From assembly GCA_035996065.1 (NCBI GenBank), contig DASYJX010000037.1:31296-95295 (forward strand): DNA of 64,000 nucleotides. The letters are read 5' to 3'. Positions within the stretch are counted from its first letter, which is position 1, and each line of letters begins with the position of its first letter. The notes beneath the pieces were generated by a model. That model was not told where the DNA came from and searched no databases. It saw only the letters and a list, made by a program, of their open reading frames with translations. Origin of the DNA: Steroidobacteraceae bacterium (GTDB lineage: Bacteria > Pseudomonadota > Gammaproteobacteria > Steroidobacterales > Steroidobacteraceae). The position numbers and the translations under genes were made by a program. Positions 2,763 to 59,042 of the stretch are shown one piece after another.

Positions 2763-2790
2763 GCTCGCTCCCGATTCATTGAATTGATTG

Positions 2791-2803
2791 ATTGTTGAAC
2801 AAT
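2791..2803. promoter_or_regulatory. Perfect dyad ATTGTT-G-AACAAT in the AT-rich spacer upstream of the DMGDH-like gene; candidate operator
   Basis: Read directly from the sequence. It is a 6+1+6 palindrome lying 29-41 nt upstream of ATG 2762, next to an (ATTG)n microrepeat and immediately downstream of the LysR gene stop. Confidence 0.3.
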
Positions 2804-2835
2804 ATTCTAGGCGCGGCGTCGCGCGTGCAATCCAG

Positions 2836-11851: not shown

Positions 11852-11869
11852 AGGAAGAATCGGCTTCGT

Positions 11870-17159: not shown

Positions 17160-17213
17160 AGGAGCTTTGACTGATCGCGGCTACCCGCTCGAGGGTCTGA
17201 CGCAGTAGTATCG

Positions 17214-17241
17214 AAGGCGGGCATGAGCCCGCCTTTTTTTT
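17214..17241 (+). terminator. Rho-independent terminator between receptor 2 and sulfotransferase 2
   Basis: AAGGCGGGC-ATGA-GCCCGCCTT: 7 G:C pairs plus 2 A:T pairs, a tetraloop, then a run of 8 T. It lies 54 nt after the TAA at 17157-17159. Confidence 0.8.
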
Positions 17242-17249
17242 GGGAATCA

Positions 17250-19256
17250 ATGCAAGCAGCCGCCGTCACAACCCCCCTTTCTCCCGTCGCGGCGGAGGTC
17301 CTGCGCATCCGCGTCCTCATCGAGCGCCAGCAATTCGCCGCCGCGCTCAAGGCGGGCGAAGCCTTGGCGGTCCAGGTTCCGGAAAACCGCGATGTCCTCT
17401 ACATGATTGCCGTCAGCCAGCGGTATTTGAAGCAAGAAGACCAGGCGCTGGCCACCCTGGAGCGGCTGCAGAGGCATCACCCCAACTTCAGTCTTCTGTT
17501 CCAGGAACGCGGCCACTGCTATGTCGCGCAGCGCGATGCGCCGCGCGCGATCGATGCGTTCTTGGGTGCCGTGAACATCAATCCGGCCTTGCCGGCGAGC
17601 TGGCGGACCCTGCAGACGCTCTTCCGGATGACCGGCCAGGCTGAGAATGCCGAGATGGCTGCCGCACATGTCGCAACTCTCGGGAAATTGCCCCCGGAGA
17701 TCGTCACAGCGACCGCCATGTTTTCCGACGGAGATCTGGCGCCCGCAGAAGAGCTCGTGCGGGCGTTTCTGTTGAAACACGGCGACCACGTCGAAGCCAT
17801 GCGGCTGCTGGCGCGGATCGGGCTTGCGCATGACGTGCTCGACGATGCCGATATCTTGCTGGAAGCCGTGCTGGCCATGGCTCCGGACTATCGAGCCGCC
17901 CGCTACGACTATGCCATCGCGCTGCTCCGGCGCCATAAGCATGAGCAGGCCATCGCCGAACTTGAGAAGCTGCTGCAGCTCGATCCGAAGAATCGGGCTT
18001 ACAAGACCACGTACGCGACAACGAAGGTGGGTCTGGGCGATCACGAGCGGGCGCTTGGGCTTTATCAGGAACTCATCGCCGACGCTCCGCAATCGCTTCA
18101 GGCATCCGAGCTGCATCTGTCGGTGGCGCACTCGTTCAAGGCGCTCGGACGCCAGCCGGAGGCGATCGAATCCTATCGCGCCGCCGCGGCGGCTCGGCCG
18201 AGTTTCGGGGATGCCTACTGGAGCCTCGCCAACCTCAAGACTTATCGGTTCACGGTGGACGAAATTTCACGCATGCGTGCCGAAGAGGCTGCCGAGACGA
18301 CCGCGCCGGTCGACCGCTACCACCTGTGCTTCGCTCTCGGCAAGGCGCTCGAGGACCTGGCCGAATACGAGGAGTCGTTTCGCTACTATGAACGCGGCAA
18401 TGCGCTCAAGAAGTCTCAGAGCCGCTATCGGCCGGAGCCGATCGAACGCAACACGCGGCTGCAGAAGGCGACCTGCACCGCGGAATTCTTCGCCGCCCGG
18501 CGCGGCGTGGGCTGCGACAAGCCCGACCCCATCTTCATTGTGGGCTTGCCGCGATCCGGCTCCACGCTGCTCGAGCAGATCCTGGCCTCACATTCGAAAG
18601 TCGAAGGCACGATGGAACTCGCGGACATTCCCCGCTTGGTGCTGGACCTGCAAGGGCGCGAGGCGGAGAGCGACAACCCGCGCTACCCGGCTGTGCTGCA
18701 CGATCTCGATCCCGCCGACTTCCTCAGGATGGGTAAGAAATTCATCACCGACACGCGCGTATACCGTACCGGCAGACCCTACTTCATCGACAAGATGCCG
18801 AACAACTTTCGGCATCTCGGTTTGATTCATCTGATTCTGCCGAATGCCAAGATCATCGATGCACGGCGCAACGCAATGGCGTGTTGTTTCAGCAATTTCA
18901 AGCAGCTCTTTGCCTCGGGACAGGAGTTTACCTATGGTCTCGAGGACATCGGCCGGTACTACCGGACGTACGTCGAGCTGATGGCGCATTGGGATATGGT
19001 CATGCCCGGCAAGATCTTGCGCGTCGAGCATGAGGATGTCGTCGATGATCTCGAAGCGAATGTCCGCAGGATCCTCGATTTCTGCGGCCTGGAATTCGAA
19101 CCTCAGTGCATCGAGTTCTACAAGACCGAGCGCAGCGTCAGAACCGCGAGCTCGGAGCAGGTACGTCAGCCGATTTTCAAGGAGGGCGTCGATCAGTGGC
19201 GGCATTTCCACCCCTGGCTAGGCCCTCTGGAGGCAGCGCTCGGTGCAGCGTCTTGA
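17250..19256 (+). CDS. TPR-repeat + sulfotransferase-domain protein, leaderless (copy 2)
   Basis: From ORF 17223-19256. The first ATG (17223) lies in the terminator loop, so I moved the start to the in-frame ATG at 17250. This gives 668 aa, against 667 and 666 aa for the paralogs. Motifs are IFIVGLPRSGSTLLEQILASH and the identical FIDKMPNNFRHLGLIHLILPNAKIIDARR block. Confidence 0.85.
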   Translation: MQAAAVTTPLSPVAAEVLRIRVLIERQQFAAALKAGEALAVQVPENRDVLYMIAVSQRYLKQEDQALATLERLQRHHPNFSLLFQERGHCYVAQRDAPRAIDAFLGAVNINPALPASWRTLQTLFRMTGQAENAEMAAAHVATLGKLPPEIVTATAMFSDGDLAPAEELVRAFLLKHGDHVEAMRLLARIGLAHDVLDDADILLEAVLAMAPDYRAARYDYAIALLRRHKHEQAIAELEKLLQLDPKNRAYKTTYATTKVGLGDHERALGLYQELIADAPQSLQASELHLSVAHSFKALGRQPEAIESYRAAAAARPSFGDAYWSLANLKTYRFTVDEISRMRAEEAAETTAPVDRYHLCFALGKALEDLAEYEESFRYYERGNALKKSQSRYRPEPIERNTRLQKATCTAEFFAARRGVGCDKPDPIFIVGLPRSGSTLLEQILASHSKVEGTMELADIPRLVLDLQGREAESDNPRYPAVLHDLDPADFLRMGKKFITDTRVYRTGRPYFIDKMPNNFRHLGLIHLILPNAKIIDARRNAMACCFSNFKQLFASGQEFTYGLEDIGRYYRTYVELMAHWDMVMPGKILRVEHEDVVDDLEANVRRILDFCGLEFEPQCIEFYKTERSVRTASSEQVRQPIFKEGVDQWRHFHPWLGPLEAALGAAS

Positions 19257-21110: not shown

Positions 21111-22646
21111 CTAGGGTTCACCGCTGCCGATTTCGGCCCGACGCTGCGCGACGTAGGCATCCAGTGATTCGCGAATCGCCGGATCCATCGCGGGCTCTTC
21201 GTACTCCTTGAGCGCCTGTTTCCAAATGATCGTGGCGCGCTGCGTCGCATCTTTACCGCCGCCGAGTTGCCAGTTCTCGTAGTTCTGCCAATTGGAAACG
21301 AGCGGCTGGTAGAAGGCGTGCTCGTAGCGAGCCATCGTGTGCGGCTCGCCGAAAAAGTGGCCGCCCGTCGGAACGCCCTTGATGGCGTCGAATCCAAGTT
21401 CTTGCTCATCGACGACGATCGGCTTGAGGAACTCGATCATCATCTGCAGCATCTCGACGTCGAGGACCAGCTTCTCGAAAGACGCAGTCAATCCCCCTTC
21501 TTGCCAACCGGCCGCGTGGTACACGAGATTGCCGTGTCCCAGAATCGCACCCCACAGGGACATCTCGGTCTCGTACGCTCCTTGGGCGTCAGCCGCATTG
21601 GACGCGCTGGCATTGGAAGTGCGGTACGGAAGCCGATAGCGGCGGGCCAATTGGCCGCCCGCGATGTTGGCCTTGGCATTTTCCGGGGTCCCAAACGCCG
21701 GCGCTCCCGAACGCATGTCCACATTCGAGGTGAAGGCGCCATACATCACGGGGGCGCCGCGCCGAACCGACTGCGCCAGCACCACGCCGAACAACGCCTC
21801 GGCGTTCTGCTGCGCAAGCGCCGCAGCGAGCGACACCGGCGCCATGGCGCCCATCAAGGTGAAGGGCGTGATGACCACCGCCTGGCCGTGTTCGGCCATG
21901 GCGATGAGTCCCTCGCTCATGGCTTCATCGAACCGGCGCGGGCTGTTCACCGAAATGATGGTAATGACGCCGGGACTATGGGCCATTTCCTCCAGCTCGA
22001 TGCCTCGCGCGATCGCCATCATCCGGATGCCGTCGAGCGCCCGCCCGGCACCGATGGCGGTGCAGTGATACACCTGATCCGAATACAGAAGATTCGCCCG
22101 ATAGGTGTCCAAGTGCCGGGAACTCGCAGGCAGCTCGACCGGCGCGCACACTTGGTTGCCGATCAGATGGATGGCGTTGAAGTGCTGCGCGAGCCGGGTG
22201 AGGTCGCAGTAGTCCTGGTAATTTCCCGACCGGCGCCCCCGCTCGCAGTCATGAACGTTGGGCGGCCCCGCCACCAGGCCGAAGTTGACATGGTTTCCGC
22301 CCATGATCACCCGTTTGTCGGGGTTGCGCGGAGTGAGGACAAATTCCGACGGTGCGCTCGCCAAGGCGCTCTCGACGATGCCGCGGTCGAGATAGACGGT
22401 CCGTGTCCCGGAGTCGACCTTTGCGCCCGCCGCTTTGAGAACGGCCAGTGCCCGCGCCGACATCACTTCCATGCCGAGCTCTTCGAGGATGCGCAGCGAA
22501 GTCAGGTGGATCGCCTCGAGCTGATCCGCCGACAGCACCTCCATGGGCAGGTAGGGGTTGCGAACTTCGGTCCAGGGCAACTGAGGGACGCGCGTTCCGT
22601 CAAGACGTCTGCCGCGGCCTCCCTGACGTCGCCGATTTGCATTCAT
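21111..22646 (-). CDS. MttB-superfamily (trimethylamine methyltransferase family) protein, non-pyrrolysine type
   Basis: From ORF 21111-22721, trimmed to ATG 22646. MNANRRRQGGRGRR... is a basic N-terminus shared in character with the paralog at 57431-58999. The 511-aa frame is uninterrupted, with no in-frame TAG. Conserved blocks include GPPNVHD, ITPFTLMGAMAPV and VYHAAGWQEGGL. Confidence 0.85.
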   Translation of the reverse strand: MNANRRRQGGRGRRLDGTRVPQLPWTEVRNPYLPMEVLSADQLEAIHLTSLRILEELGMEVMSARALAVLKAAGAKVDSGTRTVYLDRGIVESALASAPSEFVLTPRNPDKRVIMGGNHVNFGLVAGPPNVHDCERGRRSGNYQDYCDLTRLAQHFNAIHLIGNQVCAPVELPASSRHLDTYRANLLYSDQVYHCTAIGAGRALDGIRMMAIARGIELEEMAHSPGVITIISVNSPRRFDEAMSEGLIAMAEHGQAVVITPFTLMGAMAPVSLAAALAQQNAEALFGVVLAQSVRRGAPVMYGAFTSNVDMRSGAPAFGTPENAKANIAGGQLARRYRLPYRTSNASASNAADAQGAYETEMSLWGAILGHGNLVYHAAGWQEGGLTASFEKLVLDVEMLQMMIEFLKPIVVDEQELGFDAIKGVPTGGHFFGEPHTMARYEHAFYQPLVSNWQNYENWQLGGGKDATQRATIIWKQALKEYEEPAMDPAIRESLDAYVAQRRAEIGSGEP

Positions 22647-22662
22647 AAGTTCTAGTATAGTC

Positions 22663-22722
22663 CGACATCGCTGAGCCCGGATCGTGCGCGAACACGACAT
22701 CGCGATGATCCATCGCGACATC
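22663..22722. promoter_or_regulatory. Repeated CGACATC boxes plus the palindrome CATCGCGATG in the divergent MttB / GlxA-type regulator promoter region
   Basis: CGACATC occurs at 22663, 22695 and 22716. A perfect 10-bp palindrome lies at 22698-22707, and CATCGCGA recurs at 22711. All of these fall within the 105-bp divergent spacer 22647-22751. Confidence 0.4.
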
Positions 22723-22751: not shown

Positions 22752-23768
22752 ATGTCCATGCGATTTGAAGCCAGTAGTTCCGGCGCGCCGATCCGAATCG
22801 CGTTTTTGCTCATTCCTCAGTTTTCAATGATGGCATTCTCGGCCTCGATCGAGCCGCTGCGCTCGGCCAACCGCATGAGCGAGCGCCAACTGTTCGAATG
22901 GCAGCTGGTCTCGGCCGACGGCAAGCAAGTCGCCGCGAGCAATGGAATCGACATCGCGGCAACCCAGTCGCTCGACCAAGTGCACAGGGTCGATATGCTG
23001 GTTGTCTGCGCGGGGCTCGAGCCGGTGCAGTTTTCACCTCGCCATAAAATCCATCACCATTTGCGCCGGCTCGCCCGCCATGGCTCGATGGTCGGCGCGA
23101 TCAGCACCGGTTCGTTCATACTGGCGGATGCGGGGCTGCTGGCCAATCGTCGATGCACGGTGCATTGGGAATATGCCGATCTGTTTCGGTCGCGTTATCC
23201 GGCGCTCGAGGTCAGCCGGGACCTCTATGTGGTGGACCGAGATGTGTTCACCTGCTCCGGCGGCACTGCGGCGCTCGACATGATGCTGCATTTCGTCAGC
23301 CGGGCGTCGACGCCGGGAATCGCGATCGCCGTCGCCGAGCAGTTCATCCACCCGCAGATTCGAAACCAAGAGGACCAGCAGCGGCTCGAGACGCACGCGC
23401 GCTATGGGATCGACAGCCCCAAACTGGCCGAGATCCTAAGGATCATGGAAGGCGCGCTCGAAAATCCGCTTGATATCCGGCAAATATCGGATCGCATCGG
23501 CATCTCGGCGAGGCACGTCGAGCGTCTGTTCCGCGAGCAGATCGGTGCTTCTCCCAAGTCCTTTTACATGCGCCTTCGTCTGGCGCGCGCGCGGACCTTG
23601 CTGCGCCAGACCATCAATCCCATCTTGGCCGTGGCAGTCGAATGCGGCTTCCGCTCAACGTCGCACTTCAGTCATGCGTATAAACGAGTGTTCGGCAAAG
23701 CGCCGACCGACGAGCGTTCCGAGCGGCCCCGGCGCAATGCGCCGACTGGGTCGCAGATTGCTCGATAA
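22752..23768 (+). CDS. GlxA-family AraC-type transcriptional regulator (DJ-1/PfpI-like N-domain + HTH; GbdR/CdhR-like)
   Basis: 338 aa. N-terminal IRIAFLLIPQFSMMAFSASIEPLRSAN is the amidotransferase-like domain. C-terminal LDIRQISDRIGISARHVERLFRE...GFRSTSHFSHAYKRVFG is the AraC HTH. Confidence 0.9.
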   Translation: MSMRFEASSSGAPIRIAFLLIPQFSMMAFSASIEPLRSANRMSERQLFEWQLVSADGKQVAASNGIDIAATQSLDQVHRVDMLVVCAGLEPVQFSPRHKIHHHLRRLARHGSMVGAISTGSFILADAGLLANRRCTVHWEYADLFRSRYPALEVSRDLYVVDRDVFTCSGGTAALDMMLHFVSRASTPGIAIAVAEQFIHPQIRNQEDQQRLETHARYGIDSPKLAEILRIMEGALENPLDIRQISDRIGISARHVERLFREQIGASPKSFYMRLRLARARTLLRQTINPILAVAVECGFRSTSHFSHAYKRVFGKAPTDERSERPRRNAPTGSQIAR

Positions 23769-23838: not shown

Positions 23839-25650
23839 ATGCAATTTTACTCACGAGCCGCGTCGTTCGGCTGCCTTGGCGCAATATCAGCGCTGGTACT
23901 TTCCGCCCTCAACGCAGCCGCGGCATCCCCCGCTCCCTACCGCCCCATTGCGCCCAGGCTGACGGACAACACCATCGTGTTGACCGGCAAGGACCTCACC
24001 ATCGAGCAAGTCGTGCAAGTGGCGCGGTACGGCGCGAAGGTCGAGTTGAGTCCGGAAGCCAGGCAGCGCTCCGCCGACGCGCATGCCCTGCTCCTTGAAG
24101 CGGGCGCCGAGGGTGTATCGGTCTATTGGTTCAATCGCGGTTCGGGATCCGGCCGCGAGAGATTCATATTCACGGGTGATCCATTATCGCCGGCGAACAA
24201 GAAACTCTTGGAAGCCCGCCAGCTCGCGATATTCCAACGCGGCGCTCTCGCGGGCCTTGGCCCGGAGATCAGCGATGAAGAAATCGTTCGCGCCATGCTG
24301 GTGGTACGCGCCAATACCATGAGCTTCGAGGCTGCTAGTCCGCAGCTCACGCAACGCCTGCTCGACTTGCTCAATGAGCGCATTACGCCGGTGGTGCAAT
24401 CCCGGAGCACGGTCGGCGAAGGGGATTTAGGACCGTTCACGAACGTCGGAGCGACGATGGTGGGCGCGGGCAACTGCTACTACCGCGGCGTACGCATGCG
24501 GGCAGACGCGGCGCTCAAGCAAGCGGGGCTCGAGCCGCTTGCACCCTTTGGAGCCGACGACAGCGAACTAGAAAGCACCAATTCCTACTCTACCGGCCAG
24601 GCGGCGCTGCTGCTTTACGATGCGCGAGAGGCGCTGTCGTGGGCGGATCTCATCTATGCCATTGATCTCAACGGCATGAACAGCAGCGTCTCCCCGCTGT
24701 CGCAGCCCGTGCAGGCCAATCGGCCGTTCAAATGGCTCAACTGGGACGCCGCACGCGTGCTCGCCATGCTCAAGGGAAGCTATCTGTTCGAATTGGACGA
24801 CAAACGGATCATTCAGGATCCTGAAAGCTTGCGTGCTTCATCGATTCGCCAGGGCTCGGCGTGGCAAGCGTGGGCGCAACTGCGGGATGTCGTGCTCGTT
24901 CAAATGAACTCGTCCGACCACAATCCCGCGGTCCGCGTAGGCGCTTCTCCGTCGGATTCCTGGGAGCTCAGCACGCCCCAGCTCGCGCAATTCTATGTCA
25001 AGGGCAGCCCGCGCAATCATGGCCAGCACGGTTTCATATTTTCGAACGCCAACTGGGATCCCTATCCCATGGCCAACGAAATTGAAGCCTTTACGATCGC
25101 ACTCGCCAACATGGACGCTGCCGTCGTGCAGAGGATGCTGCGCTTCACGAACACGTTCTTCACCGTGATCGCACCCTCGGACGAGTCGCCGGGGGAACCC
25201 GGACGCTTCCATCTGACTCAAGGCAGCGAGATTGCGGCAGTAGCCCTCATGCAGGAAATCCAAGGTCTGATCAATCCCGTGCCGCCGGAAGGCAACGCGC
25301 TCATTCAGAATGTGGAAGACATGCAGACGCAAACGCGGCTCAAGGTCACCCGGGCGCGGGCTGCGGTCGACGATACTTTCGATCTCTTGGCCGAAGATCT
25401 GTTGACCGGGACTTATTGGCTGGATCTGCGCAAATCGCAGAATCACTCCCGAACCTTCGGCGCCTCGCCCACGGCAGTATGGACTGCCTTTCGCGGCGCG
25501 CTTCCCTTCAACGGCGCAGGGCCAAGCCCGCCCACCCAGCCGATCCACGACATTGCGGCGGCGTTCATACGCAGCAATGCAGCCGCGAATTTCTACCGGG
25601 ACAATGCACGGGAGCCAGATGCGCTCGCTCGCCGGCATATCACCGAATGA
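23839..25650 (+). CDS. Aromatic amino-acid/histidine ammonia-lyase family homolog with a signal peptide and without the MIO Ala-Ser-Gly triad
   Basis: From ORF 23470-25650, trimmed to ATG 23839 because the extension overlaps the regulator gene. MQFYSRAASFGCLGAISALVLSALNAAAASP is Sec-type. Family blocks are LTGKDLTIEQVVQVARYGAKVELSPEARQR, QDPESLR and NSSDHNPAV. The position that is GSVGASGDLAPL in HAL/PAL reads STVGEGDLGPF here. Confidence 0.75.
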   Translation: MQFYSRAASFGCLGAISALVLSALNAAAASPAPYRPIAPRLTDNTIVLTGKDLTIEQVVQVARYGAKVELSPEARQRSADAHALLLEAGAEGVSVYWFNRGSGSGRERFIFTGDPLSPANKKLLEARQLAIFQRGALAGLGPEISDEEIVRAMLVVRANTMSFEAASPQLTQRLLDLLNERITPVVQSRSTVGEGDLGPFTNVGATMVGAGNCYYRGVRMRADAALKQAGLEPLAPFGADDSELESTNSYSTGQAALLLYDAREALSWADLIYAIDLNGMNSSVSPLSQPVQANRPFKWLNWDAARVLAMLKGSYLFELDDKRIIQDPESLRASSIRQGSAWQAWAQLRDVVLVQMNSSDHNPAVRVGASPSDSWELSTPQLAQFYVKGSPRNHGQHGFIFSNANWDPYPMANEIEAFTIALANMDAAVVQRMLRFTNTFFTVIAPSDESPGEPGRFHLTQGSEIAAVALMQEIQGLINPVPPEGNALIQNVEDMQTQTRLKVTRARAAVDDTFDLLAEDLLTGTYWLDLRKSQNHSRTFGASPTAVWTAFRGALPFNGAGPSPPTQPIHDIAAAFIRSNAAANFYRDNAREPDALARRHITE

Positions 25651-26510
25651 TCGCCAACGCTCGTATGTACTCGGTGAGCCCGCAGGCTGCCGAGCTTTGG
25701 CGCAGGCTCCTCGCCGCTGTAATCGTGCACGCCGGATTGGACATCGAGCTGCTCGAACACGCCGAGCCGGCGCCGATCAACGAGTTGTGGCAGCGCTCCG
25801 ATAAAGCCGCCGTGTTCATGTGCGGCCTGCCTTTTTCTCTTTCGCATCCTCGGCCGGAACTCATTGCGGCGCCGGTCCCCTCGCCGCCCGATTTTCACGG
25901 CATGCCGCAATACTGGAGCGAAATGGTGGTGCGAAACGACAGCGCCTTCCATGCCGTTGAAGACACCTTCGGCGCGCGGATTGCTCTGACGGTGCCGGAC
26001 TCTCAATCCGGATGCCTTGCCGCGCTCTATTATCTGATGACATCCGCGAATCAATTCCCGGTCTATCGCGAAGTCATCACGCCGCAGGTGACGCCGCAAG
26101 GTGCGATGTCGGCGGTCATCGCCGGTGCGGCGGATGTGGCGCCCATCGATTCCTATGCTTTTTGCCTATTACGAAAGTATCGCCCGGACTTGACGTCCCA
26201 ACTCCGCACCATCGGCCGAACCGAGCGAACGCCCATTCCGGCGCTGGTGGCGTCGCGGACGGGCCTCGGCGGGCTGCAGGACGCGTTCCTGGAAGCGCAT
26301 CGAATTGAGTCCGTTGCCCCCCTGATGGCGGCTTTGCTGCTGCAACGGTTCGTTCGCCCGGATCCCGAATCCTATGATGCGTTGCGGTTGAATTTCGAGG
26401 CCGCAAGCCGCTTCTGGAGCGAGCATCCCCTCGCCTCCACGGTCCATCCGGCCTTCGCGGCCGGGCCTTTTGCGACCCCCGGCCTTCGCGAGGAATCGGG
26501 AAACCGTTAA
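25647..26510 (+). CDS. PhnD/SsuA-fold substrate-binding-like protein without a signal peptide
   Basis: From ORF 25416-26510, trimmed to ATG 25647, which overlaps the upstream TGA (ATGA). 287 aa, beginning MIANARMYSVSPQAAELWRRLL... This matches the ANARMY-type start typical of the leaderless PhnD-like family. No ABC permease or ATPase is nearby. Confidence 0.6.
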   Translation: MIANARMYSVSPQAAELWRRLLAAVIVHAGLDIELLEHAEPAPINELWQRSDKAAVFMCGLPFSLSHPRPELIAAPVPSPPDFHGMPQYWSEMVVRNDSAFHAVEDTFGARIALTVPDSQSGCLAALYYLMTSANQFPVYREVITPQVTPQGAMSAVIAGAADVAPIDSYAFCLLRKYRPDLTSQLRTIGRTERTPIPALVASRTGLGGLQDAFLEAHRIESVAPLMAALLLQRFVRPDPESYDALRLNFEAASRFWSEHPLASTVHPAFAAGPFATPGLREESGNR

Positions 26511-26533: not shown

Positions 26534-27436
26534 ATGCAATCCGTGAAAAAAGCATTCTTCCGAGTCGATGGGCCCACCTGGCTGGTCGCCCTGGTTCTGT
26601 ATGGCGCGTGGGTGCTTTTGGTGTGGTTCAATGCCGTCTTGCCCTGGTGGATCATCATGCCGGTGGGCGCCTATCTGATCGCTTGGCACTTTTCGTTGCA
26701 GCATGAAGCCATTCATTCGTTTCGGGGAGTGCCCGCGTGGCTACGTTTCGCGGTGGTGTTTCCGCCGTTGGGTTTATGGTTTCCGTATCCGCTCTATCGA
26801 AAGAGTCATAGCACCCATCATCGCGACGTGAATTTAACCATCCCGGAAGTCGATACCGAGTCTTATTATGTGCTTCAGGCGGACTGGGAGCGCATGGGGA
26901 GATTCAAGCGGCATGTGCTGCTGTTCAATCAGACCTTGACCGGCCGTTTGCTGATCGGCCCCGTCCTGCGCCTGTGGACTCTCATCGCCAAGGAGACGCG
27001 CCGAGTACGGCAACGCGACTACAGCCATTTGCCCCATTGGGCCCTGCACGTTGTCGCGGTGGGAATTCTTTTCTGGTTCATCTCCCGAGTCTGCCGCTTT
27101 CCGTGGTGGCAGTACTGTCTGCTCGTTGCATACCCGGGCCTGAGTTTAGGATTGCTGCGCGCATTTACCGAGCATCGCGCGGCACAAGACTCTCAGGAGA
27201 GAACCGCATCCGTCGAGTCGAATGCATTATTCGGGATGCTGTACCTCTTTAACAACCTGCACGTGGCGCATCACTTGAAGCCCACCATGCCGTGGTACCA
27301 AATCCCGCGCTTTTATCGGGAAAATAAGCATGAGCTCTTGGCGAGCAACGGAAACTTCGTATATTCAGGATATACCGTGATTGCCCGGCGGTATTTTCTG
27401 ACCCCCGTATTCAGTCCCGTTCACCCGACGCTGTAG
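26534..27436 (+). CDS. Membrane fatty-acid desaturase/hydroxylase family protein (di-iron, three His boxes)
   Basis: His boxes HEAIH, HSTHH and HVAHH, with hydrophobic spans between them. 300 aa. Confidence 0.8.
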   Translation: MQSVKKAFFRVDGPTWLVALVLYGAWVLLVWFNAVLPWWIIMPVGAYLIAWHFSLQHEAIHSFRGVPAWLRFAVVFPPLGLWFPYPLYRKSHSTHHRDVNLTIPEVDTESYYVLQADWERMGRFKRHVLLFNQTLTGRLLIGPVLRLWTLIAKETRRVRQRDYSHLPHWALHVVAVGILFWFISRVCRFPWWQYCLLVAYPGLSLGLLRAFTEHRAAQDSQERTASVESNALFGMLYLFNNLHVAHHLKPTMPWYQIPRFYRENKHELLASNGNFVYSGYTVIARRYFLTPVFSPVHPTL

Positions 27437-27445
27437 GCCATCGCG

Positions 27446-28747
27446 TTGCCCGGCAAAACCCGCGCGATCGTCGCGACCTCGATCGGCAATATGCTCGAGT
27501 GGTACGACTTCACGGTCTACGCATTGTTTGCGGGCTACATCGCCGGAAACTTCTTTCCCGGCGATGATCCGAATACGCGGCTGCTGAAAACCTTTCTCGT
27601 CTTCGGCTTGGGCTTTGTCGTCCGCCCGATGGGCGCGGTGCTCATCGGAAACTTCGGCGATCGGGCCGGGCGCAAAGCCGCGCTGACCTTGACGATTCTG
27701 TTGATGGCCGCCGGCACGGGCATCATTGCATTTTCCCCGACCTATTCATCCATCGGAATCGGAGCTCCGCTCCTTCTGTTGCTTGGGCGTGTGCTGCAAG
27801 GATTTTCGGCTGGCGGCGAAGTCGGCGGCGCTACGGCCTACCTATTGGAAAGTGCGGATCCTGCGCAGCGCGGGCGAGTCGCCTCGTGGCTCGAGGCCAG
27901 CATGGGAATGGCCAATATACTGGGTGCATTGGCGGCGTTCTCGGTTACTGCCGTATTGAGCACCGCCGAAGTGCAAGCCTGGGGCTGGCGGATTCCCTTT
28001 GTCTTTGGACTGGCGATTGCCCCGGTGGGTCTGTATCTCAGGCGCACGCTGGATGAAACCGAAGCATTCCAAGCCGAAACCCGGCTCCGGGCGCGCGACG
28101 GCGGTCACGGCAAGGCGCCGTTGTTCGAGATATTTCGCGATCATGGCCGCACCCTTTTTGTCGGCCTTTGCGTCGCGGTACTCTGGGCTGTCGCAGTGTA
28201 TGTCTTGATGATATTCCTGCCGACGTATGTGCAGCATCCCGACACTTTCAATTTCAGCGCGCGTCAGGCATTCGGCGCCTCGCTGCTCGGGAACATACCG
28301 TTCGTCATCGGATGCGTATGGTTCGGTTCCCTGTCCGATCGCATCGGCAGGCGGAGAAGCCTGTTCATCAGCGCGGCTCTTCTCCTCGTTCTGATATTGC
28401 CGTTGTTCCTTTGGCTGAAGGCCGATCCGACCCCCTCGACTCTGATCATCGTGCAATCGATCGTTTGCCTCTTGGTGGCAAGCTTCGTCGGGGTCGCTCC
28501 GGCGGCGTTGTCGGAGATTTTTCCGACCGGCGTCCGTTCGACGGGAATGTCGCTCGTTTACAACGGAGCATTTACGCTGTTCGGCGGCTTCGCACCCATG
28601 ATCCTCACCTGGCTCACGCAGCGATCGGGCGGCTCGATATACTCGCCGGCCTGGTACGTGATGCTGGCCGCGGCGGTCGCGTTGATCGCGATTCCCTTCC
28701 TGGGGCAGAGACATAAGGCCCCCATCGCAGTCCCAGAATACGTTTGA
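27446..28747 (+). CDS. MFS transporter, metabolite:H+ symporter (MHS; ProP/KgtP-like) family
   Basis: TTG start. Contains GNMLEWYDFTVYALFAGYI (MHS N-terminal signature) and GDRAGRK (MFS motif A). 433 aa. Confidence 0.85.
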   Translation: MPGKTRAIVATSIGNMLEWYDFTVYALFAGYIAGNFFPGDDPNTRLLKTFLVFGLGFVVRPMGAVLIGNFGDRAGRKAALTLTILLMAAGTGIIAFSPTYSSIGIGAPLLLLLGRVLQGFSAGGEVGGATAYLLESADPAQRGRVASWLEASMGMANILGALAAFSVTAVLSTAEVQAWGWRIPFVFGLAIAPVGLYLRRTLDETEAFQAETRLRARDGGHGKAPLFEIFRDHGRTLFVGLCVAVLWAVAVYVLMIFLPTYVQHPDTFNFSARQAFGASLLGNIPFVIGCVWFGSLSDRIGRRRSLFISAALLLVLILPLFLWLKADPTPSTLIIVQSIVCLLVASFVGVAPAALSEIFPTGVRSTGMSLVYNGAFTLFGGFAPMILTWLTQRSGGSIYSPAWYVMLAAAVALIAIPFLGQRHKAPIAVPEYV

Positions 28748-30279
28748 TCTTGCGGGAGAATCCCTTGTCGGATCGTCCGAACTTTTTAATTTTGATGGCG
28801 GATCAGCTGACCGCGCGCGCGTTGCCCGCCTACGGGAACAAAGTGGCCAAGACTCCTCACATCGATGCGCTGGCCGGCGCCGGAGTCGTTTTCGATTCGT
28901 TCTATTGCAATAGTCCGCTGTGTGCGCCGTCCCGGTTTTCCTTTCTGTCCGGCCGCCAGGTATCCGCCATCGGCGCGTACGACAACGCGGCGGAGTTTCC
29001 CGCTCAAGTGCCGACTTTCGCGCATTATTTGCGGCGCGCCGGATACCAGACCGTGCTGAGCGGCAAGATGCATTTTTGCGGCGCGGATCAGTTGCATGGA
29101 TTCGAAGAACGGCTCACGACCGATATCTATCCGGCCGACTTCGGCTGGACACCTGATTGGACTCGTTTCGAACACCGGCCGGCTTGGTATCACTCAATGG
29201 ACTCCGTCACCCAGGCGGGCCCCTGTACGCGCACCAACCAGATCGACTTCGATGACGACGTCGTCTTCAATGCGCGTCAGAAACTCTTCGACATGGCGAG
29301 GTCGAAAGATCCGCGGCCGTTCTGCATGGTCGCTTCGATGACCCATCCGCATGATCCGTACGTGATTCCGCAGCGCTATTGGGACCGCTACGAAGATATC
29401 GACATCGACATGCCGCGCGTGCGCCTCGCTCCCGGCGAGCTCGACCCGCATTCGCGGCGGCTGCGCCATGTGTGTGGGCTCGATCAGCAGCCGGTGACCG
29501 AGGCGCAAATGCGTGCCGCCCGCCGCGCTTACTATGGCGCGGTTTCATATGTCGACGATCAAATCGGCGTGCTCCTGGCGGCCCTCGCGGATGCGCGCTT
29601 CGCCGCAAACACCGTCGTGATGTTGCTCGCCGATCACGGCGACATGCTGGGCGAACGCGGCCTCTGGTACAAAATGAATTTCTTCGAACCGGCCTGCCGG
29701 ATTCCGCTGATCGTGCATTCACCGCGGCGCTTCGCCGCGCGGCGAGTGCCGCATTCCGCTTCGCTCGTCGACATCCTCCCCACCTTGTGCGATCTCGCCG
29801 GCGTCGAGCCTGATTACGCAACGCCGCTCGACGGCACGAGTTTGGCGGGGCAGCTCGAGGGAAGCCCCGGCAAGGACGAGGTCATCGGCGAGTATCTTGC
29901 CGAGGGCGCAATCGCCCCCCTCGTGATGATCAAACGCGGAGGCTACAAATTCGTGCATTCGCCCGCCGATCCGGATCAGCTGTACGATTTGCAGGTCGAT
30001 CCCGATGAGCTGCGAAATCTTGTCGCCACTCCGCGACATGCCGCGCGCGTTCAAGAATTTCTCGCGGAAGTGAAGATACGCTGGGACCTGCGAGCCCTGC
30101 ATGCCGAGGTGATGGCGAGTCAGCGGCGCCGACATCTCGTGTACGCGGCGTTGCGCAAGGGCCGGTACACGCCGTGGGATTTTCAACCGATTCGCGACGC
30201 CAGTCGGCTTTATGTCCGCAACGACCAGGAGCTCGGCGATTTTGAGGCCATGGCGAGGTTTCCTCCCTTCCGCGCCTGA
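28744..30279 (+). CDS. betC: Choline-sulfatase-like type I sulfatase
   Basis: Contains PNFLILMADQL, CNSPLCAPSRFSFLSGR (the C-x-P-x-R formylglycine motif) and DHGDMLGERG. 511 aa from TTG 28744. An alternative TTG at 28765 is preceded by GGGAG. Confidence 0.8.
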   Translation: MILRENPLSDRPNFLILMADQLTARALPAYGNKVAKTPHIDALAGAGVVFDSFYCNSPLCAPSRFSFLSGRQVSAIGAYDNAAEFPAQVPTFAHYLRRAGYQTVLSGKMHFCGADQLHGFEERLTTDIYPADFGWTPDWTRFEHRPAWYHSMDSVTQAGPCTRTNQIDFDDDVVFNARQKLFDMARSKDPRPFCMVASMTHPHDPYVIPQRYWDRYEDIDIDMPRVRLAPGELDPHSRRLRHVCGLDQQPVTEAQMRAARRAYYGAVSYVDDQIGVLLAALADARFAANTVVMLLADHGDMLGERGLWYKMNFFEPACRIPLIVHSPRRFAARRVPHSASLVDILPTLCDLAGVEPDYATPLDGTSLAGQLEGSPGKDEVIGEYLAEGAIAPLVMIKRGGYKFVHSPADPDQLYDLQVDPDELRNLVATPRHAARVQEFLAEVKIRWDLRALHAEVMASQRRRHLVYAALRKGRYTPWDFQPIRDASRLYVRNDQELGDFEAMARFPPFRA

Positions 30280-30465: not shown

Positions 30466-30879
30466 ATGACGCCTACTTGGGAAGGACACGAGCCCGACAC
30501 CAGCGCGCGCCTGCTCGATGTTCTCGTGACCGCCACCACCGGATCAGCGAAAGTCTCACGCTCCGATCGAATCCTCTTCGTCGCGTGCGAGTTTTGGGCT
30601 GCCGCGCGCAATCGTTCACTCCTGGAACAACTCAGCGCCGATCCGATTGCGCAGCTGCGAGCTGCCGAGGAAGCGTTCCACGTCATCGGGCTTCCCAAGG
30701 TGGCCGGGTGCTTGCGCCTCGGGCGCTTGGCTCTGACGGATTTCAACCCGCCGATCCAGCTGAAGAATGTCGCCGAGAATATCGAAAGCTGGCTCGAGGA
30801 TGTGGACGAACCTGTCGATCAAGTGATTGCCGAGTTCGCCAAAAAACAGGCATCCGAACGCCAAAGTAGCGCCAACTGA
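30466..30879 (+). CDS. Hypothetical protein (about 137 aa)
   Basis: From ORF 30394-30879. Composition and third-position GC look coding from ATG 30466 onward. I recognise no motif. The competing minus-strand ORFs are Arg/Ser-rich shadows. Confidence 0.4.
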   Translation: MTPTWEGHEPDTSARLLDVLVTATTGSAKVSRSDRILFVACEFWAAARNRSLLEQLSADPIAQLRAAEEAFHVIGLPKVAGCLRLGRLALTDFNPPIQLKNVAENIESWLEDVDEPVDQVIAEFAKKQASERQSSAN

Positions 30880-30908
30880 GCGATTGAGTTCGTTGTCCGA
30901 TAAACGGC

Positions 30909-31457
30909 TTAATTGAAGTCCTCGGCGGTCGAGCGCATCCATCCCATCAGATGTTCGGCGTACACGCGCTCGACGATCAATAGAAATTCTTCCGCCTGAA
31001 CGCACACTGTCAGCACGTGCAGTTCGGCCAATCGGCCGGCGCGCGCTTCGCTTAAATCCGGGACCGCGGTCGTCGCCCCCATTCGCTGCAAAAAGTCCCG
31101 CGCGCGCCGTCCTTGCGCTCGAATTACGCATACGCCTCCCGTCTGCTCCACCATGCAACCGTCCGTTGCGCTGAGAAGCCGCCGTTCGAGGTCGGCTAGC
31201 ATCGCCCGGTCGGTGCAGAGAAGCAGCGTCTCGGTGGGACCGCGCCACGCCAGAACCCCGCGCGCATGAAAGCCTCCGGTATCGAATGCCGCCGCATGCA
31301 ATGGCTGCGGGATCGGGTGCCCAATCGTATCGCACACCGTCTCAGCAAAGCGGCCCGCGCGATCGAAATAGCGCAATGAGGCCGCGCAAAAGTCCAAACC
31401 ATCGACGCGCAGGCCCGTGGCTTCGATAGCGAATGGCGCGTTCCTCAATTCATCCAC
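30909..31457 (-). CDS. soxG: Sarcosine oxidase gamma subunit (operon 1)
   Basis: From ORF 30909-31508. I prefer GTG 31457, which gives the same 8-nt overlap with the soxA stop as seen in operon 2. ATG 31508 remains possible. The gene's position after soxA and its size fit SoxG. Confidence 0.75.
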   Translation of the reverse strand: MDELRNAPFAIEATGLRVDGLDFCAASLRYFDRAGRFAETVCDTIGHPIPQPLHAAAFDTGGFHARGVLAWRGPTETLLLCTDRAMLADLERRLLSATDGCMVEQTGGVCVIRAQGRRARDFLQRMGATTAVPDLSEARAGRLAELHVLTVCVQAEEFLLIVERVYAEHLMGWMRSTAEDFN

Positions 31458-34398
31458 GGAGACGATCGCCCTGCGGATCGATGAACGGCGACGAAACGAC
31501 CACGGCATCGATGACGGACCCTAGGTGATGGATTCGAATCTTCTCACCCACCCTCTGCGTTCCCCGCGCCAACATGCCGAGTGCCACGGGGCGCTTCAGT
31601 TCCGGACTCCAATAGCTCGACGTCACATGCCCTTCAGTCCGGGTCGGCGGCGCGCCGGGCGCGATTTGCGCACCGACGGGCAATCGCGTTCGCCCATCGG
31701 CGGGCGCCAGCCCCACCAATTGAAAACGGCCGGGATCACGCGCCGCGGGACGAAGCAGCGAGCGACGGCCCACGAAGTTGGCAGCCTTGCGTTCGATGGC
31801 ACGCGCAAAGCCGACATCTTGCGGCAGCGTCGTGCCGTCGGTATCGGTGCCGATGTGGATGTAGCCCTTTTCGGTGCGCATGATCTCCAACGCTTCGATA
31901 CCGTAGGGCACGGCCTGGAAATCAGCGGCGCGCTGCCACAGACGCTCCAGTAGTTCCTTGACATGATCGGCGGGGATATTGAGTTCGTATCCGAGCTCGC
32001 CGCTGAAGCTCGCCCGCAATACCCGCAACGGCGCACCTTCCCAAGCGCTCTCGCGCAGAGTCATGTGCTTCATCGATTGCGGAGCCAAGCCGGGGTCCAT
32101 CCCCACGGATGCCAGCCAATCCCAGGCGCGAGGACCGGCCACGGTCACGTTGCCCCACCGCGAGGTCACCGGAGTCACCAGCACCCGCAGATGTGTGTAT
32201 TCGCACTGCAGCCATTCCTCGAACGCGGCCGCCGTGCGTTCAACCCCTGCACTCGTGGTGTTCACCCAGTATTGTTGAGGCCCCAGCCGGGCGACGATGC
32301 CGTCGTCAACGACCGTGCCATTCTCGTTCAACAACAATCCATAGCGCGCTTGCCCCGGACTCAAGTTCGACATCGTCCCCACATACATGAGATCCAGAAA
32401 GTGCGCGGCGTCGGGGCCATAAATCTCCAGCTTGCCGAGCGGTGAACCGTCGAGCACGCCGGCATGCCGGCGGACGGCACCGGCCTCGCGCTGAGCAGCC
32501 GACTCCAAAGACTCATGAGCCTGCGGATAGGCCGCCGGTCGCAACCAGTTGCCGAATTGTTCGAACAGCGCGCCGCGCGCTTCGTGCCATCCGTGTGCAG
32601 GCAATCTCTTCAGCGGCCGATATAAGGCGCCCACCCGCCGGCCGGCGAGCAGTCCGAGCGTCACCGGCGCAAACGGCGGCCGGAATTTCGTCGTTCCCAC
32701 CCCGGCAGGCTCACGGCCCGTGAACTCGCCCATCAGCACCAGCGCATTGATGTTGCTGGTTTTGCCTTGATCCGTGCCCATACCGGTGGTCGTATAGCGC
32801 TTCAAGTGCTCGACCGAGCGATAATTCTCTTGCGCGGCCAGACCGATATCGCCGACGGCCACATCATTTTGCAGATCGACGAACTGCTTGCCGATCACGC
32901 CCGGGGCATGAGTGGCGGCCAGCGATCTGCCGGCGCCGCCGATCGGCGCCGCCGGCGCGGCGCCGCGGCGCGCAACCGCTCGCCCAAGTTCTGCGGCGTG
33001 ATTCACCGCCGCATCGCGGGCAAATATCCCGGCACAGGCGCCGGCGCTCAGGAGTCCTGGTGCCGCGCCATCCGGAACGAACATCGCCGATTCTTCCACC
33101 CAGCGCAATTTACCTCCCGCCTGCGAATGCAGGTGCACCGCCGGCGCAAAGCCGCCCGCGCTCAAGATGAGGTCGCAATCCAGCTTCTCGGGGCGCGCAC
33201 CGTCCATCTCCGTCGAAATCACCGTGCAATTGCGCACAGCCTTCGTGCCGCCGACCCTGGCGATAGCGGCGCTGACGAAGGTCCGCACATGCCCGGCATC
33301 GGTACTGATATCCGCGGGCGGACGACGATCCACCAGCGCGACTACATTCACGCCGGCAGCGCGCAAAGAGGCGGCAACTCGATAGGCGGAATCGCTGTTG
33401 GCTGCAATGACCACTCGCTGACCGCAGGCAACGCCGAACGCGTGCGCATACTTGTCGGCAGCGCCCGCCAACATCACTCCGGGACGATCGTTGTCGGGAA
33501 AAATCATGGGACGTTCGATTGCCCCGGTGGCGGCGATGACGGCGCGCGCGCGAATTTTCCACAGCCGCTCGCGAAGCACTCCGCCCGAACTGCCCGTGGC
33601 GATACTGCCCGTGGCGATACTGCCCGTGGCGATTCGGGTGGGCGCCGGGGACCGGGATTCGCGGGCGCACACGAGGTTATGATCGTACACGCCGAATGCC
33701 AGGGTACGGGTCATCTGACGTACGCCGCAACGCTCGGCGCGCACGATCAGTGCGGCTATTTGCGAATCGTCGCGCCACGCCAGCGCACCGCCGAGCGCCG
33801 AGCCGCTCGCGAGCAACAGCGTGTCTGCGCCCGCTTCGGCGGCGGCCACCGCAGCGCTCAAGCCCGCGAGGCCGCCCCCGATGACCAATACGTCCGCCTG
33901 CGCCGCCGCTTCTTCGTAGCGATCGGGATCGGGTTCTCCGGAGGCCCGGCCGAGACCCGCCATGCGGCGTATCGAGGGTTCGTATAAATGCCAGTCGGGC
34001 CACTTGAACGTCTTGTAGTAAAAGCCTGCCGGCAGCAGCGCGGCCATTCTGTTGTTGACAGCTCCCAGGTCGAAGCGAACGCTGGGCCAGCAATTGACGC
34101 TTGCGGCAACGAGACCTTCGTGAAGATCGACCAGCGTCGAGCGCATATTGGGCGTACGCGTGGCGCCCTCGCTCAAATCGACAAGTCCGGTAGGTTCCTC
34201 GACCCCGCACGAAAATATGCCGCGCGGCCGATGCAGTTTGAAGCTGCGCCCGACGAGCTGCACGCCGTTCGCCAATAGTGCCGAAGCGAGGGTGTCGCCG
34301 GGATGGCCGATCAAGCGCCGGCCGTTGAATTCAAAAGATAGGCGCTGAGATCTATCGATTCGGCTCCCGCAAGGGACAGCAAGTCGGGACGATGTCAT
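31450..34398 (-). CDS. soxA: Sarcosine oxidase alpha subunit (operon 1)
   Basis: 982 aa. Contains FEFNGRRLIGHPGDTLASALLANGVQLVGRSFKLHRPRGI, FAD/NAD Rossmann blocks, and a C-terminal GcvT-like folate domain. ATGA overlap with soxD. Confidence 0.93.
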   Translation of the reverse strand: MTSSRLAVPCGSRIDRSQRLSFEFNGRRLIGHPGDTLASALLANGVQLVGRSFKLHRPRGIFSCGVEEPTGLVDLSEGATRTPNMRSTLVDLHEGLVAASVNCWPSVRFDLGAVNNRMAALLPAGFYYKTFKWPDWHLYEPSIRRMAGLGRASGEPDPDRYEEAAAQADVLVIGGGLAGLSAAVAAAEAGADTLLLASGSALGGALAWRDDSQIAALIVRAERCGVRQMTRTLAFGVYDHNLVCARESRSPAPTRIATGSIATGSIATGSSGGVLRERLWKIRARAVIAATGAIERPMIFPDNDRPGVMLAGAADKYAHAFGVACGQRVVIAANSDSAYRVAASLRAAGVNVVALVDRRPPADISTDAGHVRTFVSAAIARVGGTKAVRNCTVISTEMDGARPEKLDCDLILSAGGFAPAVHLHSQAGGKLRWVEESAMFVPDGAAPGLLSAGACAGIFARDAAVNHAAELGRAVARRGAAPAAPIGGAGRSLAATHAPGVIGKQFVDLQNDVAVGDIGLAAQENYRSVEHLKRYTTTGMGTDQGKTSNINALVLMGEFTGREPAGVGTTKFRPPFAPVTLGLLAGRRVGALYRPLKRLPAHGWHEARGALFEQFGNWLRPAAYPQAHESLESAAQREAGAVRRHAGVLDGSPLGKLEIYGPDAAHFLDLMYVGTMSNLSPGQARYGLLLNENGTVVDDGIVARLGPQQYWVNTTSAGVERTAAAFEEWLQCEYTHLRVLVTPVTSRWGNVTVAGPRAWDWLASVGMDPGLAPQSMKHMTLRESAWEGAPLRVLRASFSGELGYELNIPADHVKELLERLWQRAADFQAVPYGIEALEIMRTEKGYIHIGTDTDGTTLPQDVGFARAIERKAANFVGRRSLLRPAARDPGRFQLVGLAPADGRTRLPVGAQIAPGAPPTRTEGHVTSSYWSPELKRPVALGMLARGTQRVGEKIRIHHLGSVIDAVVVSSPFIDPQGDRLRG
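33589..33633 (-). repeat. Perfect 15-bp x3 in-frame tandem repeat inside soxA (encodes IATGS-IATGS-IATGS)
   Basis: The plus strand reads ACTGCCCGTGGCGAT three times, at 33589-33603, 33604-33618 and 33619-33633. Confidence 0.95.
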
Positions 34399-34661
34399 GG
34401 CGGCGGCGGATCGGTCATGCTGTAGACCGAGAGTATTTCATGGGTGACGGTGTTGCGTGCGAGATTGAACCACCGGCCGCAGCCTTGGCTGTGGCGCCAG
34501 CGTTCCAGATGCACACCCTTCGGATTGTCGCGAAAGAATAAATATTCGCCCCAGACTTGGTCGCTTTGCTCCAGTCCCGGCCGCGCGATATGCGACGTGC
34601 CGCCGCAAGTGAACTCGTTTTCGTCGCGTAAACCGCAATGAATACAGGGAATCTGCATCAT
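34395..34661 (-). CDS. soxD: Sarcosine oxidase delta subunit (operon 1)
   Basis: 88 aa. MMQIPCIHCGLRDENEFTCGG... is the Cys-rich SoxD N-terminus, and ERWRHSQGCGRWFN is also present. Confidence 0.9.
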   Translation of the reverse strand: MMQIPCIHCGLRDENEFTCGGTSHIARPGLEQSDQVWGEYLFFRDNPKGVHLERWRHSQGCGRWFNLARNTVTHEILSVYSMTDPPPP

Positions 34662-37134: not shown

Positions 37135-37273
37135 GAGACAGTCCTGGTTTTCAAGAGTTCTTCCTACGATACCAATATTCGAGCGCAACCCGGTGCCCCG
37201 AAGCGACGTTTTCCAAGAAATATACGACGAAGCGATTTGCGCCGGCATTAGGATTGCGTAAACTCTCGCTGCC

Positions 37274-43777: not shown

Positions 43778-43786
43778 GATGCCGAG

Positions 43787-46261: not shown

Positions 46262-46390
46262 CGCATCGCCCCCTTGTACCACTCCCGATGGCACGCGGAC
46301 GCATGCCGGTTCGGATCATGTCTTGCGAAGGCGATGCCTGTCAATGACCAACGCCCCACACGCTGATCGATCGTTCAATAGGCGAACGGG

Positions 46391-48391: not shown

Positions 48392-48404
48392 CGATGGGTC
48401 ACGC

Positions 48405-53391: not shown

Positions 53392-53403
53392 ACGGGACAC
53401 CCG

Positions 53404-58999: not shown

Positions 59000-59042
59000 T
59001 CGGCGCAAACGATGGAGCGGCTGCGCGGAGCGTTCGCCGAAG

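Follow-up and report, generated by a model that had tools for sequence, protein, structure and literature searches.

A probable exported MIO-independent trimethylammonia-lyase from a Steroidobacteraceae bacterium, and its clade of lyases without imidazole- and thiolate-binding residues

Introduction

Ergothionase removes trimethylamine from ergothioneine without the 4-methylideneimidazole-5-one (MIO) cofactor of the aromatic amino-acid ammonia-lyases (Bertsova et al., bioRxiv 10.1101/2025.08.13.670108; 10.64898/2026.04.22.720169). MIO is unnecessary in ergothionase-type lyases because the quaternary ammonium group, released as trimethylamine, is a good leaving group, and all characterised MIO-less homologues eliminate trimethylamine and require the trimethylammonium group of their substrate (both Bertsova et al. 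preprints). In ergothionase, Lys384 binds the thiolate and was reported to be essential for activity (Bertsova et al. preprints). Three Shewanella enzymes of this group act on histidine betaine (Swoo_3913), ergothioneine (SO_3057) and N-pi-methyl histidine betaine (SO_3299). They carry leader peptides, are predicted to be periplasmic, and are each coupled to a flavocytochrome enoate reductase in anaerobic respiration (bioRxiv 10.1101/2025.08.13.670108; 10.64898/2026.04.22.720169). Here, a gene for a related protein is described, located at positions 23839-25650 of a 64,000-nucleotide stretch of contig DASYJX010000037.1 (assembly GCA_035996065.1) of a Steroidobacteraceae bacterium; this whole stretch is called the window below.

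As judged from its sequence, the product, hereafter the lyase, is probably a Sec-exported, MIO-independent trimethylammonia-lyase of the ergothionase/histidine-betaine-lyase group. Being MIO-less and being exported are both features of this known enzyme class. What is new is that the lyase belongs to a diversified clade from soil bacteria in which the imidazole- and thiolate-binding residues are missing.

A lyase-fold protein without the MIO triad

The gene starts with an ATG at 23839, and its open reading frame (ORF) ends at 25650, which gives a product of 603 amino acids. The features of the gene and its product discussed below are the following.

23839-25650, forward strand: lyase coding sequence, for a putative exported betaine trimethylammonia-lyase (ORF, PF00221, match to 6S7J, AlphaFold2 model)
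23839-23925, forward strand: predicted Sec-type signal peptide, residues 1-29 (sequence, leader conservation)
24124-24126, forward strand: Tyr96, equivalent of the catalytic base (Tyr54 of Treponema denticola ergothionase, Tyr53 of histidine ammonia-lyase, HAL), from alignments; without variation among 56 family members and 92 clade lyases
24241-24249, forward strand: Gly135-Ala136-Leu137, with Ala136 at the site of the His that binds the imidazole N-tau (T. denticola His84, Swoo_3913 His117, HAL His83), from the multiple sequence alignment (MSA)
24415-24426, forward strand: G-E-G-D loop, in place of the MIO-forming G-A-S-G-D of HAL and of the phenylalanine and tyrosine ammonia-lyases (PAL and TAL) and the same as in ergothionase (alignments, MSA)
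24814-24834, forward strand: QDPESLR, with the carboxylate-binding Gln326 and Arg332 (HAL Gln277 and Arg283), from the MSA and the preprints
24922-24924, forward strand: Asn362, third carboxylate ligand (HAL Asn313), invariant in family and clade
24940-25038, forward strand: clade-specific insertion of ~33 residues (368-400), located after the DxNP motif and before the SNANW strand (alignment gap relative to ergothionase)
25228-25233, forward strand: Glu464-Ile465, with Ile465 at the site of the thiolate-binding Lys384 of ergothionase (MSA, spacing)
25315-25317, forward strand: Glu493, equivalent of T. denticola Glu412 and HAL Glu414 (ring-nitrogen contact, substrate activation), from the MSA

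The protein had been recognized as a HAL/PAL-family homologue in a first-pass annotation, and the family blocks quoted there, LTIEQVVQVARYGAKVELSPEARQR, QDPESLR and NSSDHNPAV, are all found in the translation. Residues 53-551 match positions 1-464 of the 466 positions of the Pfam profile PF00221 (Lyase_aromatic; E 2e-93). The AlphaFold2 model has a mean predicted local distance difference test score (pLDDT) of 89.7 and a predicted template-modelling score (pTM) of 0.90. With this model, Foldseek matched HAL, tyrosine aminomutase (TAM), TAL and PAL, all with a probability of 1.00, which places the protein in the PF00221 superfamily.

The loop at the MIO site reads RSTVGEGDLGPFTNVG (R-S-T-V-G-E-G-D-L-G-P-F). 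In the HMMER alignment to the aminomutase SgTAM (PDB 2OHY), the single MIO residue, denoted X, lies opposite the E-G of G-E-G-D; thus, compared with G-A-S-G-D, the loop lacks one residue. A regular-expression search of the whole protein found no ASG, TSG, CSG or SSG, and the only such triplet is a GSG at 101/103, in the Tyr loop. The Ala/Thr/Cys-Ser-Gly triad of MIO-dependent lyases and aminomutases is, therefore, absent, as had been annotated, and canonical ammonia elimination is indeed not expected. Consistently, the NCBIfam HutH model scored 154 against a cutoff of 539, and the scores with the TAM, PAL and TAL equivalog models were far under their cutoffs. Identity as a canonical HutH, PAL, TAL or TAM can be ruled out on the basis of these scores and of the missing triad. 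The fold, the loop with the Tyr base, and the QDPxSxR and DxNP motifs are shared with HutH, PAL, TAL and SgTAM, whereas the lyase lacks the triad, has the shorter loop and is, as predicted from its sequence, exported. Among the matches listed, most close homologues (at least 85% identity) carry the database label 'histidine ammonia-lyase', which the assignment to the ergothionase type corrects.

Relationship to ergothionase

The best match in the PDB by sequence is T. denticola ergothionase (6S7J; E 6e-41). The same structure is also the best fold match of the AlphaFold2 model in Foldseek (E 2e-30; TM score on the target 0.90), ahead of HAL, TAM, TAL and PAL. Its loop, R-S-S-I-G-E-G-D-I-T-T-L, contains the identical G-E-G-D. 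In the first-pass annotation, the MIO-less state had been treated as unexplained. However, lack of MIO defines the ergothionase-type trimethylammonia-lyases, and exported members, Swoo_3913, SO_3057 and SO_3299, have also been described already. Since G-E-G-D is a known ergothionase motif and exported members are known, the lyase does not represent a new use of the scaffold. What that annotation could not reveal is the loss of two substrate-recognition residues found in all characterised members, and the separate clade to which the lyase belongs.

For comparison at the residue level, 6S7J was included in an MSA with 53 full-length representatives of the clusters retrieved from among 1.84 billion proteins. 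The 6S7J sequence was rebuilt from a printed alignment, and its chain numbers equal the published ones minus one (Y53, K383 and E411 are Tyr54, Lys384 and Glu412, respectively). Residue roles follow the two Bertsova et al. preprints, and residue equivalences derive from sequence alignment and the AlphaFold2 model. Y96, R332 and N362 do not vary in any of 56 family members, whose identity goes down to 24%, and Q326 and E493 are almost invariant among them; Glu194 of the G-E-G-D loop is conserved in the MSA. Thus, the lyase has the loop of the ergothionase type (G-E/x-G/A-D), together with the Tyr, the Gln/Arg/Asn site and the equivalent of Glu412, all of which, like the PF00221 fold, it shares with 6S7J. 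In contrast, the overall identity to 6S7J is only ~24-26%, the level of 37% being reached only in the N-terminal half, and the lyase contains additional segments, i.e., ~9 residues before position 136, the 33 residues 368-400 and a C-terminal extension. The insertion 368-400 is 94% identical among close homologues and is predicted to be structured, with high pLDDT. Furthermore, ergothionase is cytoplasmic and has no leader, whereas the lyase bears one.

Further differences concern the substrate-binding residues, where His84 and Lys384 of ergothionase are replaced by Ala136 and Ile465. Hence, the lyase lacks both the His that contacts the N-tau of imidazole substrates and the thiolate-binding Lys of ergothionase in the strict sense. 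The register at Ala136 appears sound, as the alignment is ungapped up to a G-x-G-P motif six residues downstream and the spacing between the Tyr and the His position is 40, as in Swoo_3913. Likewise, Ile465 is located 28 residues ahead of the conserved Glu, a spacing that is found also in T. denticola ergothionase and Swoo_3913. In most of the other representatives, the signature is that of ergothionase, Y-H-E-Q-R-N-K-E, the Lys position also occurring as N, D, R or H. The Shewanella trimethylammonia-lyases resemble the lyase in being MIO-less PF00221 proteins with a leader; they release trimethylamine, and variation to Asn or Gln at the position of Lys384 tunes their specificity. However, they retain the imidazole-binding His.

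It might be argued that the lyase is a plain ergothionase or hercynine lyase that binds the ring of the same substrates by different residues. 6S7J is, after all, its best match in both sequence and structure, Glu493, which would contact the imidazole N-pi, is retained, and soils in which fungi and actinobacteria abound commonly contain ergothioneine and hercynine. Yet the His that HAL, T. denticola ergothionase, Swoo_3913, SO_3057 and SO_3299 have in common is Ala136, and Lys384 is Ile465. The distribution of these replacements, discussed below, makes this explanation unlikely.

As the cofactor-forming triad and two ligand-contacting residues are missing, the lyase might also be taken for a pseudo-enzyme, i.e., a non-catalytic periplasmic binding protein. 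This is very improbable, since the catalytic Tyr, Arg and Asn are invariant across the family, active enzymes of the ergothionase group normally lack MIO, and the entire mature domain, with >90% identity, is under very strong purifying selection. The first-pass annotation had left the choice between a different chemistry and a binding role; with Y96, R332 and N362 invariant and Q326 and E493 nearly so, the former is retained and a pure binding role is considered unlikely.

The N-terminal leader

The N terminus of the lyase, MQFYSR-AASFGCLGAISALVLSAL-NAAAA|SP, shows an n-region, a hydrophobic core of 18 residues and an A-x-A cleavage site, i.e., the elements of a Sec signal peptide. Its evolutionary behaviour was assessed in homologues with at least 85% identity, more than 120 of which were obtained from a search of 5.8 billion proteins; those with an organism name are from metagenome-assembled genomes of Steroidobacteraceae. 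In the 118 homologues used for the comparison, the mean identity of residues 1-30 is 49%, as opposed to 90-94% in the mature domain, while a hydrophobic 12-mer core is retained in 111 of them. Such divergence of the leader with retention of its hydrophobic core is the pattern expected of a translated, functional signal peptide. In all close homologues with a complete N terminus, a similar leader precedes a conserved P-Y-R-P-I motif. In the AlphaFold2 model, residues 1-30 have low confidence, except for a helix at 12-24, and high confidence starts at residue 31. The lyase is, therefore, very probably exported via Sec and periplasmic, as the first-pass annotation had proposed on account of a hydrophobic leader of ~30 residues.

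The N-terminal extension could, alternatively, be something other than a cleaved signal peptide, or result from a wrongly assigned start codon, which would leave the enzyme in the cytoplasm. Indeed, a few homologues (P0100, P0105 and P0112) have been called from a Met just ahead of the domain, and the putative Shine-Dalgarno sequence, AGGA, is ~15 nt away from the ATG, which is rather far. However, the lyase reads LTDNT where these homologues have their Met; no in-frame Met follows residue 1 before the domain begins at residue 45, nor is any Met, GTG or TTG start evident at the domain boundary. Moreover, the hydrophobic core and the A-x-A architecture are retained despite only 49% identity, and a comparable leader is borne by 86 of 88 clade lyases, whose source genomes belong to several phyla and include Alphaproteobacteria and Actinomycetota. 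A cytoplasmic location is, thus, highly unlikely. Two other assignments were rejected. A start at an upstream TTG at 23470, or as in the 630- and 637-residue gene calls P0002 and P0003, would run into the regulator gene, and the position equivalent to 23839 is where homologues begin. A lipoprotein signal (SFGC) does not apply, because its Cys, at residue 12, is too near the N terminus and is not conserved.

A separate clade with diverse pockets

Eight of the representatives in the MSA (P0121, P0122, P0123, P0126, P0128, P0130, P0137 and P0147), which are 35-55% identical to the lyase, likewise lack the His and the Lys. In a midpoint-rooted neighbour-joining tree, the representatives without these residues group together, separately from the His-containing enzymes. 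When one genome per species was scanned, the clade was detected in Steroidobacteraceae and further Gammaproteobacteria, in Mesorhizobium, Sphingomonas, Novosphingobium, Sphingobium and Phenylobacterium, and also in Caulobacteraceae, Parvibaculaceae, Thermoleophilia, Solirubrobacterales and Gaiellaceae. The carriers available in culture include Mesorhizobium montanum MSK 1335, Sphingomonas oleivorans FW-11, S. formosensis CC-Nfb-2, S. zeicaulis DSM 100587 and Novosphingobium sp. FSW06-99. All 92 clade lyases from related loci retain the Y, Q, R and N residues; none of the 92 has a His at position 136 or a Lys at 464/465. Position 136 is occupied by A, G, P, V, E, W and other residues, and the pocket signatures include E-I...Q-N-V-E in the lyase's own group, G-Y-V...G-T-V-E, G-F-H...S-G-V-E, Y-F-M...F-G-V-A and that of a GEAD-F group, among others.

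Many genomes contain two to four copies of the clade lyase genes, often in tandem, with four copies in locus L065 and three each in loci L047, L033 and L018. In these arrays (L065 3150-13588; L047 8899-14351; L033 2-5239; L018 6037-11710), the pocket residues differ between the paralogues. The arrays adjoin genes for a TonB receptor, trimethylamine dehydrogenase (TMADH), a GcvT-like protein and transporters of the major facilitator superfamily (MFS). A search for product-catabolism genes beside the arrays of L047, L065 and L018 yielded only genes for efflux, a Na/H exchanger, a peptidase and electron-transfer flavoprotein (ETF), which are uninformative on the substrate.

The occurrence of two to four paralogues with differing pockets argues for several substrates. 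Together with the position of the clade apart from the His-containing enzymes in the tree, this speaks against the lyase being a plain ergothionase or hercynine lyase. As Ala136 and Ile465 replace His and Lys, the substrate of the lyase is probably neither ergothioneine nor plain hercynine; by the same comparison, it is probably another betaine, bulkier or differently substituted. Candidate substrates for the clade are the betaines of tryptophan, tyrosine and phenylalanine, and substituted hercynines. Searches of the literature on lyases of hypaphorine or other amino-acid betaines and on links to TMADH yielded nothing on this clade, and no characterised member of it turned up in the literature searched.

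Gene neighbourhoods

Neighbourhoods were compared in 80 related loci. In 12 of the 80, mostly with more distant paralogues, a TMADH-type gene of 730 codons adjoins the lyase gene; the one that was tested (L047 6403-8595) gave a full-length match to the trimethylamine dehydrogenase of PDB 1DJN, with 1411 bits. An ETF-alpha gene is located beside the TMADH gene in L018 (13427-14392), and ETF is the natural electron-acceptor family of trimethylamine dehydrogenase. GcvT-like, FolD, aldehyde dehydrogenase, MttB and sarcosine oxidase genes are also recurrent neighbours. The contexts with TMADH, ETF, GcvT and FolD lend independent, contextual support to trimethylamine release by clade members.

The lyase gene itself is the first of a tightly packed operon, whose successive genes are spaced by -4, 23, 9 and -4 bp. 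The operon partners and the genes upstream of the lyase gene are listed below, with the number of related loci in which they recur.

14517-19256, forward strand: TonB-dependent receptor (14517-17159) and cytoplasmic sulfotransferase with tetratricopeptide repeats (TPR; 17223-19256); 20 and 17-18 of the 80 loci, respectively
21111-22721, reverse strand: non-pyrrolysine MttB-family methyltransferase, upstream of the regulator (PF06253, E 6e-197); 7-8 loci
22752-23768, forward strand: AraC-type, GbdR-like regulator containing a DJ-1/PfpI domain, separated by 70 bp from the lyase gene downstream (Pfam; NCBIfam GbdR 331 bits, cutoff 480)
25647-26510, forward strand: PhnD/AioX-like binding-fold protein without signal peptide, the start overlapping the stop of the lyase gene (ATGA); with orthologous lyases in 17 loci
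26534-27436, forward strand: membrane protein of the FA_desaturase family (di-iron), 300 amino acids, same operon; 19 loci
27446-28747, forward strand: MFS metabolite/H+ symporter (TcuC/ProP-like), same operon; 17-18 loci
28744-30279, forward strand: choline sulfatase BetC, last gene of the operon, with a 4-bp overlap with the MFS gene (TIGR03417, 803 bits, cutoff 433); 7 loci

At loci with orthologues of at least 65% identity, the lyase, PhnD-like, desaturase-like and MFS genes are mostly retained together (17-19 loci in all). The Shewanella lyases are coupled to a flavocytochrome, whereas the neighbours here are TonB receptors, MFS transporters, MttB, sarcosine oxidase, BetC and, in related loci, TMADH. 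The hosts appear to be soil bacteria, and their loci contain oxygen-dependent amine-catabolic genes. A partner of the Shewanella type was searched for, but no flavocytochrome c or enoate reductase with an FMN_bind as well as an FAD_binding_2 domain was found in the window or among the recurrent neighbours in the 80 loci, so that a lyase-flavocytochrome module has to be dismissed here.

Several points weigh against the lyase being a betaine trimethylammonia-lyase. The PhnD-like and desaturase-like partners do not obviously fit into a betaine-lyase pathway, no gene for aromatic-enoate catabolism was recognised adjoining the lyase gene, and no TMADH, Tmm or Tdm is encoded in the 64-kb window. The reaction proposed for clade members draws on homology and gene context, and the residue equivalences behind the substrate argument on alignment and the AlphaFold2 model. 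The long Shine-Dalgarno spacing mentioned above also belongs here. These observations leave some room for a different leaving group or chemistry, such as elimination of dimethylamine, a sulfonium or a sulfate-linked group, or else hydration or isomerisation of an unsaturated acid, perhaps tied to the choline sulfatase and the PhnD/AioX-like and desaturase-like proteins. Such a function would accommodate the operon partners of the orthologue group that a trimethylamine-lyase leaves unaccounted for, the lack of a trimethylamine-oxidising enzyme in the window, and the conserved 33-residue insertion near the active-site region. Nevertheless, the Tyr base and the carboxylate triad are intact and TMADH, ETF, GcvT and FolD genes adjoin clade members elsewhere; hence, it is considered improbable, and release of trimethylamine from a betaine remains the preferred reading.

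Among solved structures, a PDB search with the PhnD-like protein gave AioX/PtxB-type binders only. In locus L035 (363-2920), a member of the PhnD family is coupled through the same ATGA-type overlap to an MttB-family methyltransferase. The PhnD-like proteins of the window and of L035 suggest a function in the cytoplasm, in the metabolism of quaternary amines and not in ABC transport. For the desaturase-family protein, the PDB search gave no solved relative, and NCBIfam only a weak CrtR-like match. The MttB gene (21111-22721, reverse strand) is an uninterrupted ORF without an amber codon and scores 302 bits with the model for pyrrolysine-containing trimethylamine methyltransferases, the cutoff of which is 525; it was, therefore, classified as non-pyrrolysine. 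No gene for a corrinoid protein was recognised near it, and the remainder of the island carries genes of oxygen-dependent amine catabolism.

The 64-kb window is a methylated-amine catabolic island, a setting that, like the GbdR-type regulator upstream of the lyase gene and the choline sulfatase at the end of the operon, favours a betaine lyase. Besides the genes listed above, it contains the following.

351-2876, reverse strand, and 49464-52121, forward strand: dimethylglycine dehydrogenase-type genes
5272-6876: BetA-like GMC oxidoreductase
6899-8131: enolase-superfamily gene (MR_MLE)
8128-9045: 3-hydroxyisobutyrate dehydrogenase-like gene
31450-35908, reverse strand, and 52132-57311, forward strand: two sets of sarcosine oxidase genes
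35905-37275, reverse strand: GbcA-like Rieske oxygenase
48405-49478, reverse strand: second GbdR-type regulator

Pairs of a TonB receptor and a cytoplasmic TPR-sulfotransferase of ~670-740 amino acids occur three times in the window (9239-13873, 14517-19256 and 41342-48616), and such a pair is also found beside clade lyases in 17-20 of the 80 genomes. Two ORFs on the reverse strand, 57386-59062 (558 amino acids) and 30616-31335 (239 amino acids), have no Pfam match at the thresholds used; they could be either genuine orphan genes or artefactual ORFs of this high-GC DNA.

A model for betaine cleavage

On the basis of these comparisons, the following route may be envisaged. An alpha-N,N,N-trimethyl amino acid, i.e., a betaine, would cross the outer membrane via a TonB-dependent receptor and bind to the lyase in the periplasm, where Gln326, Arg332 and Asn362 would hold its carboxylate. 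Glu493 would probably polarise the side-chain ring, as Glu412 does in ergothionase. Tyr96 would take the beta-proton, and trimethylamine would leave directly, yielding a trans-alpha,beta-unsaturated acid. The MFS symporter encoded in the operon could import this acid or other betaines, while trimethylamine would enter C1/methylamine metabolism, via TMADH where this enzyme is present.

Implications

The formation of trimethylamine has been studied mostly in the gut, where choline, carnitine and ergothioneine are its sources and health is the concern, and in the sea, in relation to climate-active gases. To our knowledge, the substrates of the MIO-less lyases known so far are ergothioneine or histidine betaines. 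A widespread soil clade whose members lack the imidazole- and thiolate-binding residues implies that additional substrates and new reactions exist. It is tentatively proposed that the exported lyases of this clade strip trimethylamine from varied non-imidazole or modified amino-acid betaines in soil, with paralogue arrays of as many as four genes, differing in their pockets, connected to TonB receptors and TMADH/ETF. This would constitute a hitherto unrecognised aerobic 'betaine-harvesting' route and a source of trimethylamine in soil, and would involve new reactions. Thus, fungal and plant betaines may be mined in soils for C1 units and nitrogen.

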